The notes under the pieces were generated by a model. It did not search any database. It was not told where the DNA came from and was given only the letters and a program-made list of their open reading frames with translations. The position numbers were made by a program, and so were the translations under genes. This document shows positions 58,745-63,265 of a stretch of 64,000 nt of DNA, piece by piece. The stretch spans positions 2,641 through 66,640 of the forward strand of contig CAZVXF010000006.1 in the NCBI GenBank assembly GCA_964630875.1. The letters are read 5' to 3'. Each line of letters starts with the position of its first letter. Position 1 is the stretch's first letter. Source of the DNA: an uncultured bacterium. GTDB lineage: Bacteria; Chlamydiota; Chlamydiia; Chlamydiales; SM23-39.

Positions 58745-58828
58745 GCCGGTGTGGCGAAATTGGTAGACGCGATAGACTCAAAATCTTTTTCTAGCAATAG
58801 AGTGCTGGTTCGAGTCCGGTCACCGGCA
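58745..58828 (+). tRNA. tRNA-Leu (anticodon CAA), class II with long variable arm
   Basis: The acceptor stem is GCCGGTG/CACCGGC, the anticodon loop is cTCAAaa, the T-loop is TTCGAGT and the length is 84 nt. CCA is not encoded. Confidence 0.88.
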
Positions 58829-58835
58829 AAAACAA

Positions 58836-58871
58836 AGAGAAAAAGCCTCCCGGCTTTTTCTCTTTTTTTTT
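58836..58871 (+). terminator. rho-independent terminator after tRNA-Leu
   Basis: AGAGAAAAAGCC-tccc-GGCTTTTTCTCT followed by a T run. Confidence 0.75.
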
Positions 58872-59055
58872 GTCGGTGAAGAAAGCCAATTTATTGGCTT
58901 TCGTCCGGATGAGAAGTGAAAGACGTTGTTTTTCGCATCGAAAAACCGTCTGAACCGGCTTTCTGAACGAGCGGTATAATTAACAATGAATTTTTTTATA
59001 TAGCTAAAAACAGCGTTATGATGTTAAAATATATTAGATTAAATCATAATTAACT

Positions 59056-60312
59056 ATGACAATATATAAAATTTTTCTTTCTGGATCTAATATTCCGATT
59101 TCCATTGCAAGAAAGGCAACGCCATGGCCAAAATATTGGTGTGCTGTAGGTTTTTTTGCATCTCTTGCAACGAGCTTTCAGATATATAACTCTGCTTCAG
59201 CATATTGGTCTAACAAAACAGTAACAAATGGAAAAAACTCCGGAGCATCTTCTTTTGCCGCGAGAGAATACAGGGTGGATGCTTTTGGAAATCATTTTGA
59301 TCCTGGTTTTTTTGAAAGCTCTTTCTTTAGAGAAAAAATTCTTCCCCAATGTGCCCACCATTCAGCTCTCCATGCGGTAGTTGGCATCACAGTTCTTCTT
59401 TTGCAACTCATTCAAAGCTCTCACGATCAATCTATCGTCTACAAAGCGATAGAAAATTTCAAGATTACAGATCTGTATGCATATCATCCAAGCTTGAAAA
59501 CTGCGATTGATCGAAATGATGGGGGAGAACCTTCATTTTGTTCAGAGAGCAGAAATCTATATTATCAATTTGCACTTGAAATTGCTTTTGCAGTCATGGC
59601 GAGTATTCGGTTTTCTAAAGGACCAACAGCGCTTACTCAAAGTGAAAGCGACGAAGTAATAGAATGCTTGAAAGATCGTCTCTGTCTCAAATTTCATGGA
59701 ACAAATTCATTTTTCCTAGAAAGAATAAAAGCAGAGGGGATGAGCGGCAGCTCTGGCAGAGAATATCATGAAGAAATCAAAGAATTAACTAAAGATTTAG
59801 GAAAAGATCTATTTGGTTGGTACTCACACCAATCCAAAGCGGTATTTTACCAAACCAGAAACCCTGAAGAAGCGTTTCATTATGCAAAAGGATCTCCAGA
59901 ATGGTTTCAGAGTTTTTTATGTGATTGGAATGCAGAGAATAATTCTTCCAACTATTTTCGCTATGAAAAACGGGATAGCAATAAAGCGAGAGAATTATTT
60001 CATGCAAGAATCAATCAAAACCATCATTGGACAGAGGATCAACAAAAAAAAGTAGAGCGTTTTTACGAAAAGTACTGGCAAAGATTTGGGACGGCAAACC
60101 CTGCCCTTATTGTGATGCGTGCAGACCCTAAAGATTTTCGCAAGCTTTTAGCGATATATGAAATGTTCGATACTTCATCGGATAAAAAACAATCATTCAT
60201 TAAGGGTTGCTCGATGTGGTTTGCACGCTGTGATCCTCACGATACTTCAGATAAAGCCATCCCTCCTTCTGAATTACGCTACTACACTTTCCCAACGATT
60301 CAATTTAAATGA
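59056..60312 (+). CDS. hypothetical protein (island cargo)
   Basis: 418-aa ORF with one N-terminal hydrophobic segment and no recognised domain. Confidence 0.45.
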   Translation: MTIYKIFLSGSNIPISIARKATPWPKYWCAVGFFASLATSFQIYNSASAYWSNKTVTNGKNSGASSFAAREYRVDAFGNHFDPGFFESSFFREKILPQCAHHSALHAVVGITVLLLQLIQSSHDQSIVYKAIENFKITDLYAYHPSLKTAIDRNDGGEPSFCSESRNLYYQFALEIAFAVMASIRFSKGPTALTQSESDEVIECLKDRLCLKFHGTNSFFLERIKAEGMSGSSGREYHEEIKELTKDLGKDLFGWYSHQSKAVFYQTRNPEEAFHYAKGSPEWFQSFLCDWNAENNSSNYFRYEKRDSNKARELFHARINQNHHWTEDQQKKVERFYEKYWQRFGTANPALIVMRADPKDFRKLLAIYEMFDTSSDKKQSFIKGCSMWFARCDPHDTSDKAIPPSELRYYTFPTIQFK

Positions 60313-60422
60313 GTTTTTTTATAAAACAGCTTTTCTTATAACCACTCGAAATAATACGGAATTTGACTTTCCCCGAAAACTCACTTCTTTGAGGGTATTC
60401 TCAATTTTTTTTTGCCCACCTA

Positions 60423-61298
60423 TCATTTAGAGGGGGTGATGACTCCCAGTGAGTCTTTTGGATCAAGTAACAACCGTGGCTTTATAGTTTTAATCCGTTT
60501 CTTGAGCTGCTTGATCGGTTCTGCTGGTGGAATATTTTCAGGGAGGGTCCCATCGATTCTAGAAATTGCTGCTCGTACTTCTTTGCCAACTTCTGCATGA
60601 GTATCAATTGCATCTCTTTGATTCATAATCTTTTTTTTCTTTAGTTTTTCCTTCGTTTGCGTCATGCGAAAAAGGTTTGCTGCGAGTTCAGTTATGTCCA
60701 TTCGGTCCATGAGTTGTTCTTTTGGAGAGATCCCTTTCTTGATTTTGATTGCATCAACTCCCAGTCCTCCATAAAGACCCTGATATCCAGCGTCATGAAA
60801 AATGCCGAACATAGAATTTTGAACACCCGCTTCGCGAGCTGCTCCAGACAAAGCCTTGAATTCGACCTTTGCCTGTTCCCGCGTTTCTAATCGTTGCATG
60901 TCTGCGGCCATTTGATCCGAAATTTCCTGACGGCGAGTCTGAATGGTAAAATATTGCTGCGCTTGTGCAATTTCCGGTTTTCTGGGATCCCCGTTTTGGG
61001 CAATCAAATAACAGGCAGCGCGTGAAAGATGATAATCCTCAACTATTTGCAATGATCCTTTACCTCCCGGGATCGGTTTGCGGGCGTCCGCAAAGTGATG
61101 GTTTGGACTGTTTCCAGACTGTTCACAGGACTGAAGCGCTTTCTTAATAGCATTTTTGAAATCTCTCCAATTGGAATACCCAAGACAAGCCTGAAGATCT
61201 CGTGCACTCCAATATTCGACAGCATGCTGATTTAGTTTTTTAAGCGATTCGAAAGATAGATCCGATGGTACTGGAACTGGATTGTTAAACTCATCCAT
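60423..61298 (-). CDS. dinD: DinD-like (DNA-damage-inducible protein D / Bro-N related) protein
   Basis: ...HAVEYWSARDLQACLGYSNWRDFKNAIKKALQSCEQSG...HFADARKPIPGGKGSLQIVEDYHLSRAACYLIAQNGDPRKPEIAQAQQYF. Start taken at ATG 61298, preceded by GGAG. The ORF is open from TTG 61313. Confidence 0.65.
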   Translation of the reverse strand: MDEFNNPVPVPSDLSFESLKKLNQHAVEYWSARDLQACLGYSNWRDFKNAIKKALQSCEQSGNSPNHHFADARKPIPGGKGSLQIVEDYHLSRAACYLIAQNGDPRKPEIAQAQQYFTIQTRRQEISDQMAADMQRLETREQAKVEFKALSGAAREAGVQNSMFGIFHDAGYQGLYGGLGVDAIKIKKGISPKEQLMDRMDITELAANLFRMTQTKEKLKKKKIMNQRDAIDTHAEVGKEVRAAISRIDGTLPENIPPAEPIKQLKKRIKTIKPRLLLDPKDSLGVITPSK

Positions 61299-61820: not shown

Positions 61821-62586
61821 GCTTAAGATCGATCGGTTCCCAAGAATCAGCCATCATGAGTACTCTTCTTCGATGATGCCCTGTATGTGCGGAGAATAGT
61901 TTTCCCATTACACGAATGCCTTGGCTCCATAACTCTTGAGGAGGATCTTGCTCTGAAAATACGACTTGTATTTCTCGTACACCTTGCTCAGGTTGATTCA
62001 ATAGATCTTCTTCAGATTCCGGCAGCATTACGTTCACAGGTTCTCGTAGGGCTAGAAAAAGAGGAGTCTCTGGCCTATCACCACTTGCGATATCTGAATA
62101 GTTCGGGGGGCCTGGATAGGTTTTTTGTGCGATCGTTCCCACTAATTCTGTTGTATGAGGTTCATAAAACACAGTTTTGGGTTCTTTAGTTTGTAGCTCT
62201 ATATCTAATGCAGTATCAACCCGTAATGCCATTTCATCGAAAAAATGAAAAGGCTTCGCGCATCTACCATGAATCTCTACTCTCTTTCCCAATAACGAGT
62301 TGAATTCTTCGCATATATTAAGTTCGATAAAGGGTAAGGAGATTTGTTCCGTTAATACTGGAGAAGTTCCGACTGAAAGGGCTCGAGAAAGAACGATTGG
62401 TTGATCCGGAACCAGAACAGTTTTTCGTTCTTCCCACTTTTTTTCTGTGCCATCAGGATCTCTACTTCCGCACTGGCGAATAGCAGTTTTTAGCACACCC
62501 TTCATTACAATTTTGGGTTCCTCCTCCCATCCAAAAAGGGACGAAGTACAATAAAGTATTAAGAAAGACAACCGTAAAAAATACAT
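61810..62586 (-). CDS. secreted protein, DUF4431-like
   Basis: The signal peptide is MYFLRLSFLILYCTSSLFG. It contains ...TYPGPPNYSDIASGDRPETPLFLALREPVNV...GIRVMGKLFSAHTGHHRRRVLM. Confidence 0.45.
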   Translation of the reverse strand: MYFLRLSFLILYCTSSLFGWEEEPKIVMKGVLKTAIRQCGSRDPDGTEKKWEERKTVLVPDQPIVLSRALSVGTSPVLTEQISLPFIELNICEEFNSLLGKRVEIHGRCAKPFHFFDEMALRVDTALDIELQTKEPKTVFYEPHTTELVGTIAQKTYPGPPNYSDIASGDRPETPLFLALREPVNVMLPESEEDLLNQPEQGVREIQVVFSEQDPPQELWSQGIRVMGKLFSAHTGHHRRRVLMMADSWEPIDLKPTQ

Positions 62587-62626
62587 CGTTTAGGATTCCC
62601 TATTTTTTAATGGTATATGTGAAAAA

Positions 62627-62656
62627 ATTGTAAGTTTTTCTTTGAGTTTCTGCCAA
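62627..62656 (-). promoter_or_regulatory. candidate sigma70/66-type promoter (module copy 2) for the DUF4431-like gene
   Basis: On the minus strand it reads TTGGCA-18 nt-TACAAT, about 40 nt upstream of the start at 62586. Confidence 0.4.
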
Positions 62657-62685
62657 TCAAAAGTTCTGATTACGTCCGATTGCCT

Positions 62686-62879
62686 GCAAAAAACAAAGAG
62701 AAAAAGCCTCCCGGCTTTTTCTCTTTTTTTTTGTCGGTGAAGAAAGCCAATTTATTGGCTTTCGTCCGTACTCGAAGTGAGAGGCGATGTTTTTCGCATC
62801 GAAAAACCGCCTGAACCGGCTTTTGCCAGACGGGACGAGCGTCTCGCTCGCCCGCGCAAAAGGAGTCCGGTCACCGGCA
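62686..62879 (+). repeat. structured repeat unit: terminator copy + hairpins + displaced tRNA-Leu 3' end (copy 2)
   Basis: It contains an exact copy of the terminator hairpin (62697-62732), then GAAAGCCAAtttaTTGGCTTTC, GTTTTTCGcaTCGAAAAAC and CGAGCGtctCGCTCG, then gagtccggtcaccggca. Confidence 0.8.
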
Positions 62880-63265
62880 AAAAACAAAAGGAAAGCCTCC
62901 AGGCTTTCCTTTTTTTTTGCCGGAGAAGAAAGCCAATTTATTGGCTTTCGTAGGTGCGAGAAGTGTAATACCGAAAAGAAATCAAAAATTGGTTTTTTAG
63001 ACTGCGTCGTCTTGGCAGCATATTTTGGGTCTTCACTCGCGCCTTGTCTATCGACAATGGTCGCTCGCTCTAGACACCAAAATCTGCGCCGACTCCTTGC
63101 TAAAATTCCAATTTTTGAATTCATTTCGGTATAGGCGATGTTTTTCGCTTCGAAAAGCCGGTTGAACCGGCTTTTGCCAGACGGGACGAGCGTCTCGCTT
63201 GCCTGCGCAAAAGCGGTCCGGTCACCGGCAAAAAAAAAGAAGGCCCCAAGGGCCTTCTTTTTTTG
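62880..63265 (+). repeat. second, mostly deleted unit: distinct terminator (62890-62918), arm sequence, third tRNA 3'-end copy (63216-63230) and a third terminator (63238-63265)
   Basis: GGAAAGCCTccAGGCTTTCC+T9; ...ggcgatgtttttcgcttcgaaaagccggttgaaccggcttttgccagacgggacgagcgtctcgcttgcctgcgcaaaagcGGTCCGGTCACCGGCA; AGAAGGCCccaagGGCCTTCT+T7. Confidence 0.75.

Follow-up and report, generated by a model that had tools for sequence, protein, structure and literature searches.

In the 64-kb window analysed here, a continuous stretch of DNA from an uncultured bacterium of the Chlamydiales, the 3' end of a tRNA-Leu(CAA) gene (58745-58828, + strand; called by ARAGORN, and by Rfam RF00005 at 53.2 bits) is repeated several times in the sequence that follows it, amid terminators and decayed cargo. 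We regard this region as probably a composite and decayed hotspot of elements encoding large serine recombinases (LSRs), its foundation being a structured module, conserved in the lineage, by which the attachment site is duplicated. A sequence-only reading of the same DNA had likewise placed an integration hotspot at this tRNA, and a site-specific hotspot with several events and decayed cargo is indeed what we see; the recombinases at the junctions in related genomes, however, are LSRs, and not of the tyrosine class which that reading assumed.

The last 17 nt of the tRNA (GAGTCCGGTCACCGGCA, 58812-58828, +), located by pattern search and designated O, recur without mismatch at 62863-62879, with 0.05 matches expected by chance, and a third copy (63214-63230) carries two mismatches (15/17), its last 15 nt being exact. 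Both downstream copies are preceded by the same arm (62782-62887 versus 63133-63238, 92% identity over 106 nt), whose 36-nt core has only two occurrences in the window, and each copy of the tRNA end is followed by a terminator of its own, all as first described: T1 and T2 were found on both strands by a terminator scan, and T3 is a perfect 15-nt inverted repeat. The combination of a G+C-rich stem-loop and a T run is predicted at T1 (twice), at T2 and at T3, the last of which lies between an A run and a T run. Missed at that time were a 135-nt direct repeat that brackets the cargo (58828-58962 versus 62689-62823, 94%), a degenerate copy of the tRNA end, O' (ACGTCCGATTGCCTGCA, 62672-62688, +), directly 5' of the second T1, and an inverted copy of the acceptor 3' strand behind every terminator. 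The 135-nt repeat duplicates T1 together with a palindromic box and the initial half of the arm, the box itself being present three times. Such inverted copies of the tRNA end follow 15 of 65 tRNA-Leu(CAA) genes, versus none of 22 other tRNAs.

The window matches contig DATIHY010000030.1 of a metagenome-assembled genome (MAG; GCA_035480255.1, 'Chlamydiales bacterium') at 100% over 16.3 kb, and this contig, which is our locus L002 (window coordinate = L002 coordinate + 47679), continues for 2.4 kb beyond the window end. The extra part holds, in order, a second copy of a Bro-N gene, a promoter-like segment with O', a terminator T4, a further module copy (d) and a fourth exact O (L002 17699-17715), which abuts a recombinase fragment. 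Measured between exact O copies, the island spans ~6.55 kb, from 58829 to window-equivalent 65377, and not 4.4 kb. The boundary proposed for the outer element is also displaced, as the right edge of its cargo is O' (62688) and not 62862.

Serine recombinases and junctions at tRNA-Leu(CAA)

For comparison, 80 Chlamydiota loci were collected by means of a conserved M15-like gene upstream of tRNA-Leu(CAA), of which 60 have at least 60 nt of sequence 3' of the tRNA. Thirteen of these 60 contain open reading frames (ORFs), full or partial, of a recombinase type designated LSR-A, which lie on the opposite strand and extend 34 nt into the tRNA; in L077, for example, a full-length LSR-A gene of 533 aa occupies 14795-16396 (-) and the tRNA 14750-14832. 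The gene end of a second type, LSR-B, abuts the tRNA in two of the 60 (L010 and L013), and full-length LSR-B genes adjoin tRNA-Leu(CAA) in L090, L093, L094, L095 and L115. Full-length LSR-B proteins have the domains PF00239, PF07508 and PF13408 (Resolvase, Recombinase and Zn_ribbon_recom). A Pfam census of 128 ORFs situated up to 6 kb 3' of tRNA-Leu(CAA) in ~45 loci returned Bro-N in 7, Recombinase in 6, Zn_ribbon_recom in 3 and Resolvase in 2, and Phage_integrase (PF00589) was absent among the families matched by at least two of those ORFs. Comparison of the tRNA-Leu(CAA) locus across ~60 related Chlamydiota loci does reveal integrases adjoining the tRNA, as the first reading would have it, but their class is serine; no tyrosine integrase was found at the tRNA in these loci, nor among the ORFs of the window locus. 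Because LSR domains, and no tyrosine integrase, appear both in the downstream census and among the junction genes, we read the recombinase class at this hotspot as serine rather than tyrosine.

The statement that no integrase remains is true inside the window. A C-terminal LSR fragment, however, lies 1.4 kb beyond the window end (window-equivalent 65385-65777; L002 17709-18098), where it corresponds to residues 363-492 of the 492-aa LSR P0124 at 88% identity. This pseudogene fragment of 130 aa gave no match in Pfam, and its last codons (TGC CGG TGA) fall within the outermost exact O. Elsewhere, metagenomic relatives of LSR-B (44-73% identity) abut genes for tRNA-Asn, Gln, Ser, Arg, His, Thr and Met, and the relatives together occupy eight further tRNA types beyond tRNA-Leu(CAA), nine kinds in all. 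Two elements of such relatives, of ~8 kb, are bounded by 17-24-nt repeats of the tRNA end (L155, L160).

The LSR-A gene has peculiarities of its own. Its ORF crosses the recombination junction into the complement of the tRNA-Leu gene, ending in the C-terminus ...TGLEPALYC* (L077; also L048, L066, L087 and others). A tandem pair of LSR-A pseudogenes in L066 has an internal junction that resembles attP, and in the attP-like copy the C-terminus is different. The last coding hairpin of LSR-A (CCGGAGACATTTTCAGAAATG..GTCTCCGG plus a T run) resembles a tRNA terminator, and at several loci a C-terminal stub is all that survives of the gene. In L040 the gene-end signature (CATCCCCCCCGGAGACATTTTCAGAAACGG...) is found also directly 3' of tRNA-Arg(TCG), ~9.8 kb upstream of the tRNA-Leu(CAA) of that genome, where by this signature the LSR-A type uses a second tRNA. 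An apparently intact LSR-B element lies beside tRNA-Leu(CAA) in L090 (1-7161; GCA_027316765.1) and encodes an HTH_3 regulator, a SpoVG-like protein, a DUF927 protein (primase/helicase-like) and a ResIII helicase fragment, the contig ending before the far attachment (att) site. We also considered whether the elements are phages: an 18-mer match in a viral collection, within a high-GC phage portal gene (L175), was attributed to chance, and the sole viral relative of LSR-B is 35% identical, leaving no evidence for a phage nature.

In all compared loci the breakpoint lies immediately 3' of the tRNA's terminal ...GCA. The partners to its left are the tRNA, 'arm-O' or 'Bro-N promoter-O''; to its right stands either a terminator or the end of a recombinase gene, which may be LSR-A (CATCCCCGGAGACATTTTC...) or LSR-B (ATCAATCGGACGAAT...). 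O' and ~45 nt upstream of it are highly conserved beside Bro-N-type genes, and the window, L002, L019 and L093 share its 17-nt core without a difference, while L027, L034, L040, L045 and L058 show 1-4 substitutions (1-2 in L058). O' leads into a terminator in three cases (the window, L002 and L027); in L093 it meets an LSR-A end, and in L019 a terminator-derived spacer, the same inverted copy and a module. In both the window and L027 the sequence behind O' duplicates the sequence behind the tRNA, the sequences involved in L027 being unrelated to those here. Junctions of 'arm-O' with a recombinase gene are found in L002 and L019 (LSR-B) and in L016 (LSR-A).

Joining two half-sites, O' and the LSR-B gene end, gives a reconstructed attP, CGTCCGATTG-cctGCaat-CAATCGGACG, with 10-bp inverted arms, an 8-bp spacer, 13 of 19 positions symmetric and its centre at the G|C of ...GGCA; the attP sequence for LSR-B so reconstructed is GATTACGTCCGATTGCCTGCAATCAATCGGACGAATGG. 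A short, dyad-symmetric attP is the shape expected of a serine integrase, and because the dyad of O' and the LSR-B gene end has this shape we take O' to be a putative P half-site of the LSR-B attP, with O as the presumed B half-site. On this basis we read O'|T1b (62672-62700) as attR, where cargo 1 would end on its right side, the O|LSR-B junction outside the window as attL, and tRNA|T1, arm-O|T2 and arm-O|T3 as attB or attB-like sites. A crossover at the terminal GCA does not have to copy 17 nt of the tRNA, and therefore the exact 17-mers need another explanation.

A folded module downstream of the tRNA

The exact 17-mers form part of a conserved module, which is found single and cargo-free in relatives, and the proposal that they are tRNA ends displaced by two successive integrations is not supported. 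In ~19 relatives the order after the tRNA is terminator, inverted acceptor copy, box hairpin, AGGACTCGAAGTGAG, a hairpin H3, GAACCGG, the arm and a terminal GAGTCC, which in some genomes is lengthened to a full O. The module measures ~100-190 nt and is usually single and cargo-free, as in L007, L014, L034, L052, L069 and others, and exact or near-exact copies of the tRNA end lie 118-218 nt 3' of the tRNA without coding cargo in L007, L016, L017, L027 and L033. Whereas the repeats of a tyrosine-type island would be found only where an element is or once was inserted, cargo-free copies exist in these relatives, and the same repeats in relatives without a mobile element, which the sequence-only reading had itself named beforehand as evidence against it, are common. 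Because single cargo-free modules are so common, we do not consider the arm-O units to be scars of independent integrations. The inverted acceptor copy (TGCCGGYGA) matches the local tRNA variant in every case, and in L022, L035, L074 and L093 it is the reverse complement, without a break, of the final 20 nt of the tRNA. Box stems at the equivalent position in relatives differ in sequence, and their complementarity is kept.

The copies in the window follow this order. The bidirectional terminator T1a (58834-58865; terminator scan), with which O would form attB, is part of an extended hairpin in which the acceptor 3' strand (58820-58828) pairs with the inverted copy TGTCGGTGA (58871-58879), with 28-nt arms that are 93% complementary. 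Then come palindromic box hairpin a (GAAGAAAGCCAATTTATTGGCTTTCGT, 58878-58904; three exact copies in the window, 0 expected) and a truncated module a (58906-58970, +; within the 94% direct repeat), which comprises a B3-like motif, H3, GAACCGG and the first half of the arm, the arm stopping at ~58970, where the cargo starts. Behind O', terminator T1b (62695-62726) is followed by an inverted copy (62732-62740), box b (62739-62765) and module b (62767-62870, +), which is predicted to fold as a three-way junction (covariance model 73.6 bits, E 1.7e-13; fold z-score -5.35) and is closed by the exact tRNA-end copy O2 (62863-62879, +), a putative attB-like site together with T2. After T2 (62886-62913) stand a further inverted copy (62918-62926) and box c (62925-62951). 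Module c is interrupted immediately 3' of its B3 motif (GAAGTG) by a 165-nt insert (62968-63132; recognised by comparison with module b) that resembles a miniature inverted-repeat transposable element (MITE) and has 33-nt inverted ends (88% complementary). The 3' part of module c (H3, GAACCGG and arm; 63132-63221, +; covariance model 33.1 bits, E 3.5e-4; 92% identity) leads into O3, the 15/17 copy (63214-63230, +), which with T3 would constitute another attB-like site; T3 (63232-63264) and the inverted acceptor copy TGCTGGTGA (63264-63272) together span 63232-63272. The ~350-bp 'inner element' of the first reading is thus one copy of the module with a MITE-like insert in it. Identity among modules a, b and c is 86-94%, and module d has diverged.

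From the B3 motif to the terminal copy, the module is predicted to form a three-way junction in which P1 pairs GGACTC with GAGTCC, P3 is the arm, and P2 would consist of two Watson-Crick pairs, an invariant tandem G.A/A.G and H3. In a MAFFT alignment of 16 units the seed covariation score is 0.279, versus 0.177 for shuffles (0/500) and at most 0.124 for slid controls, and pair 11-83 is GC in 10 sequences, AU in 6 and unpaired in none. The covariance model (R1) was built from the explicit structure; RNAalifold on the raw MAFFT alignment, with its gaps, gave no structure. This model has 25 matches in 1.15 Mb of collected loci, all of them on the tRNA strand and just 3' of tRNA-Leu(CAA), and 0 matches in 0.76 Mb of metagenome loci around 80 LSR-B-family genes. 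The alignment of the 25 matches, which is fitted to the model, has a covariation score of 0.352 versus 0.152 for shuffles (0/500), with compensatory changes at 18 of 24 pairs. Base pairs are kept by compensatory changes among homologues, as in a structured single-stranded element. Full units have fold z-scores of -4.0 to -5.6, minimum-free-energy z-scores being alike on both strands. G-U pairs number 27 versus 14 A-C (p = 0.06), the tandem G.A is present only on the tRNA strand, and the tRNA strand is weakly favoured as the module's own.

Fold prediction also pairs the inverted copy with the terminal O as an acceptor-like helix; a plus-strand RNA of the module would be expected to have the ends GCCGGUG... 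and ...CACCGGCA. In an Rfam 15 scan of 58000-64000 only the tRNA passes, with all other families far below their gathering scores, and ARAGORN finds no tmRNA or second tRNA at the module. Readings as a hammerhead or as a tRNA with an insertion were rejected, since on manual inspection the core motifs do not fit; neither ARAGORN nor Rfam makes such a call. Two functions seem most likely: the module may be a structured RNA, encoded on the tRNA strand and ending like a tRNA, or else an insulator/attB element with a structure of its own.

Some variation among relatives was observed in passing. In L053 (~11070-11130) the H3 region of the module is a short tandem repeat (GGAGCCGAGTC x4). An identical box hairpin (AAAAACGGTCCGGGGGACCGTTTTT) is found in L014, L019 (unit 2), L032 and L040, and because the flanking M15-like proteins of these genomes are only ~60-66% identical to that of the window, the shared box hints at horizontal exchange or conversion of module parts.

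Cargo, proposed history and alternatives

The first cargo block holds a 418-aa gene with no family match (59056-60312, +), a gene for a Bro-N domain protein (60423-61313, -; Pfam; phrog_8036; PADLOC candidate PDC-S13), a 141-aa ORF with no family match (61395-61820, +) and a gene with a C-terminal DUF4431 domain (61810-62586, -; Pfam). The second block opens with a 96-aa ORF (63304-63594) in the part that lies within the window (63304-64000, -), and continues beyond it (window-equivalent 64052-65777) with the Bro-N pseudogene, O', module d, the exact O and the LSR-B fragment. This second Bro-N copy is 91-93% identical to the first and is split into ORFs of 194 aa and 115 aa by a ~155-nt insert (L002 ~17000-17155, window-equivalent ~64680-64835) with 19-nt perfect inverted ends (CTCGATGTTCCACTTTTTT...); a kinship between this insert and the MITE-like one at 62968-63132 was considered, and the two are unrelated. 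Bro-N homologues 69-81% identical occur in seven other loci downstream of tRNA-Leu(CAA) (tblastn), and L010 retains a partial fragment that is 93% identical.

Both the Bro-N and the DUF4431 gene are preceded by a 47-nt promoter-like segment (61337-61383 and 62621-62667; -35 TTGGAA/TTGGCA, -10 TAAAAT/TACAAT), the second copy (62621-62667, -; TTGGCA-18-TACAAT) being 85% identical to the first. At the second Bro-N copy, as in L019, this segment leads directly into O'; the 141-aa and DUF4431 genes therefore appear to have been inserted later, with duplication of the promoter. Upstream of the M15-like gene, a sigma-54 activator gene (56722-57813, -) is an intact ORF of 363 aa in the window; the gene calls of the NCBI MAG have only a 44-aa HTH_8 gene there and the Logan assemblies a 300-aa call, a discrepancy of annotation.

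It is reasonable to postulate the following history for a hotspot of LSR elements built on the module. The ancestor would have had the arrangement tRNA|terminator-module-O, and tandem duplication of the block [terminator-module-O] would then have made each 'O|terminator' a reproduction of attB. LSR-B elements carrying Bro-N beside attP may have integrated at these distal attB-like copies and not at the tRNA itself, after which deletions would have removed each attL junction together with the recombinase gene and left the cargo stranded. Cargo 1 (58971-62671) would end in the attR O'|T1b, cargo 2, from ~63290, in the second O', and the LSR-B fragment beside the terminal O of module d would be the remnant of a third event. 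Such a history of duplication, integration and deletion would account for the truncation of module a, for the likeness of what follows O' at T1b to T1a, for the run of the T3 inverted copy straight into cargo 2, and for the arm-O|LSR-B junction at the far right.

Several considerations weigh against this account. The history is a parsimony argument, and the order of the repeats is known from one short-read MAG assembly only. Independent Logan contigs from related samples end at 58779 and 58818 (inside the tRNA), at 58878 (in the box) and within Bro-N, and when alternative junctions or empty sites were sought in the same population these contigs stopped at the repeats. The GC content of the island does not set it apart from its flanks, so that base composition gives no island signal; right-flank synteny was tried as a marker of the island end and abandoned, the downstream genes of the nearest contiguous relative (L007) being missing from the window and L002. 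An O'|LSR-B attP was seen neither in a chromosome nor in circular form, none of the LSR-B elements recovered at tRNA-Leu(CAA) is intact at both ends, and the far end of LSR-B in L093, considered as a clean attR, proved too degenerate. Serine integrases seldom have a palindromic centre such as the G|C here, and the right half of attB (the A-rich terminator flank) has no symmetry to the left half. Both cargo blocks are without attL, which requires two independent and similar deletions. The strand preference of the module is weak, by the pair counts given above. Last, the module could itself be element-borne, as a long P-side end.

This last alternative is the one that survives best, although we consider it unlikely. 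It would make the module the long P-side end of LSR-B elements, the arm-O|terminator junction a genuine attR and the cargo-free units deletion residues. The 'arm-O|LSR-B' junctions of L002 and L019 do look like attP in a tandem array (compare L066), the far border of the related LSR elements in L155 and L160 does contain 17-24 nt of the tRNA end, and the identical boxes of L014, L032, L040 and L019 occur in genomes that are not especially close. However, the covariance model is without a match around the LSR-B-family genes, many modules have no LSR within 4-9 kb, and no module stands before the LSR-B genes that abut the tRNA in L010, L013 and L090. Furthermore, a unit directly after the tRNA would need a deletion exactly at the junction in ~15 lineages independently, and the agreement of the inverted copy with the local tRNA acceptor variant in every case does not favour an incoming module.

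Slightly less probable still, in our estimation, is an origin of the repeats purely by local tandem duplication of the region downstream of the tRNA, with the cargo brought in by homologous recombination or transposition. The 86-94% identity of modules a, b and c agrees with it, the 135-nt repeat around cargo 1 would fit a Campbell-type homologous insertion, and the two MITE-like inserts attest to other mobile DNA active here. Against this stand the shared phase of the junctions after ...GCA with their interchangeable partners, the LSR fragment lying exactly on the outermost O, the existence of a dyad between O' and the LSR end, and the recurrence of the same architecture in L027 with unrelated sequences. 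An assembly artefact, in which mis-joined short reads would have produced both copies of Bro-N as well as the present count and arrangement of near-identical modules, is very unlikely: the Logan assemblies do break inside the tRNA, the box and Bro-N, and the window and the NCBI contig may share an assembly, but T1, T2, T3 and T4 are distinct, the arms (92% identical) and Bro-N copies (91-93%) are distinguishable, and independent MAGs (L019, L023, L027, L033 and L038) have arrays of several units comparable to this one. Two successive tyrosine-recombinase integrations, with the tRNA 3' end in attP and the old end displaced downstream, seem to us the least credible origin of all, for while repeats of a tRNA 3' end with a shared arm and terminator are the classic footprint of such events and tandem accretion at tRNA genes is well known (Pam100G, PMC548262), there is no tyrosine integrase at the locus or in the recurrent families of the 128 ORFs, the junction recombinases are LSRs, the arm-O unit is a cargo-free single copy in many relatives, and the right border of the cargo is O', which is not an exact repeat.

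Returning to a hotspot of LSR elements on a module of the host lineage, a further suggestion can be made tentatively, although we find it doubtful: that the module is a host-maintained structured element not described before, probably an RNA encoded on the tRNA strand, whose ends recreate the acceptor helix and 3' tail of tRNA-Leu(CAA), and which with its terminator is arrayed as decoy or secondary attB 'landing pads'. LSR elements would in that case be caught downstream of an essential tRNA and not at it. More speculatively, as the terminator hairpin splits the tRNA end from its perfect inverted copy, extrusion of a hairpin or a cruciform would create a fully palindromic LSR site, and integration would then be coupled to the structural state of the locus.

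Relation to known systems and implications

tRNA genes are textbook targets of tyrosine integrases, and the serine integrases of phages and integrative elements (phiC31, Bxb1, TP901-1 and A118 type) mostly target protein-coding genes or intergenic sites. The recombinases considered here share with the latter, in their full-length members, the Resolvase, Recombinase and Zn ribbon domains with a coiled coil, and further a short dyad-symmetric attP (here reconstructed), hybrid attL/attR sites without a long core duplication, and an integrase gene that adjoins attP. Unlike textbook serine integrases, they appear to target the tRNA 3' terminus (nine kinds), with an ORF that reads across the crossover into the tRNA complement and a coding end that seems to double as the terminator hairpin of the tRNA, and the central GC we infer is palindromic.

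Integrase-less segments flanked by att sites are also familiar from streptococci as cis-mobilizable elements (CIMEs), which, with satellites, accrete at the att sites of integrative and conjugative elements in tandem with an integrase-bearing element. Those are tyrosine-integrase systems, whereas the blocks without an integrase here are also without attL, and their att-like repeats form part of a folded module. As for functional RNAs derived from or resembling tRNAs, examples are the 3'ETS-leuZ sponge RNA (from a 3' external transcribed spacer) in E. coli and tmRNA, whose genes are integration targets. The module is like these in being a structured element 3' of a tRNA-Leu on the same strand, in which an acceptor helix is predicted to form, and in the likely integration at a tRNA-like terminus. 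It differs in lying beyond a strong terminator and in having neither an Rfam match nor an ARAGORN call.

The closest chlamydial comparison is the Pam100G island at a tRNA-Gly of Protochlamydia amoebophila UWE25, with three 17-bp direct repeats (PMC548262). In both cases a chlamydial chromosome carries an island that begins at a tRNA gene, is subdivided by ~17-nt repeats and contains mosaic, decayed cargo with phage-related genes. In contrast to Pam100G, an LSR gene end abuts the tRNA in the present case, the exact repeats are part of a structured module, the island measures 6.5 kb and the tRNA is tRNA-Leu(CAA). Further differences from Pam100G are a family of serine recombinases that seems to target tRNA termini, a putatively duplicated attB, and a covariation-supported module that matches no Rfam family. 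Neither LSR elements at a chlamydial tRNA-Leu nor this module turned up in searches of the open-access literature.

This locus and ~140 related ones point to an LSR family that docks on the last bases of tRNA genes of many specificities and is widespread in environmental Chlamydiota. Few mobile elements are known from this phylum and hardly any genetic tools exist for it, and the reconstructed attP/attB pair could give a tool for integration. The module, found downstream of tRNA-Leu(CAA) only and without a counterpart in Rfam, is a candidate for a new non-coding element. That it has been duplicated into several attB-like sites hints at how hosts or elements might steer the position of integration.

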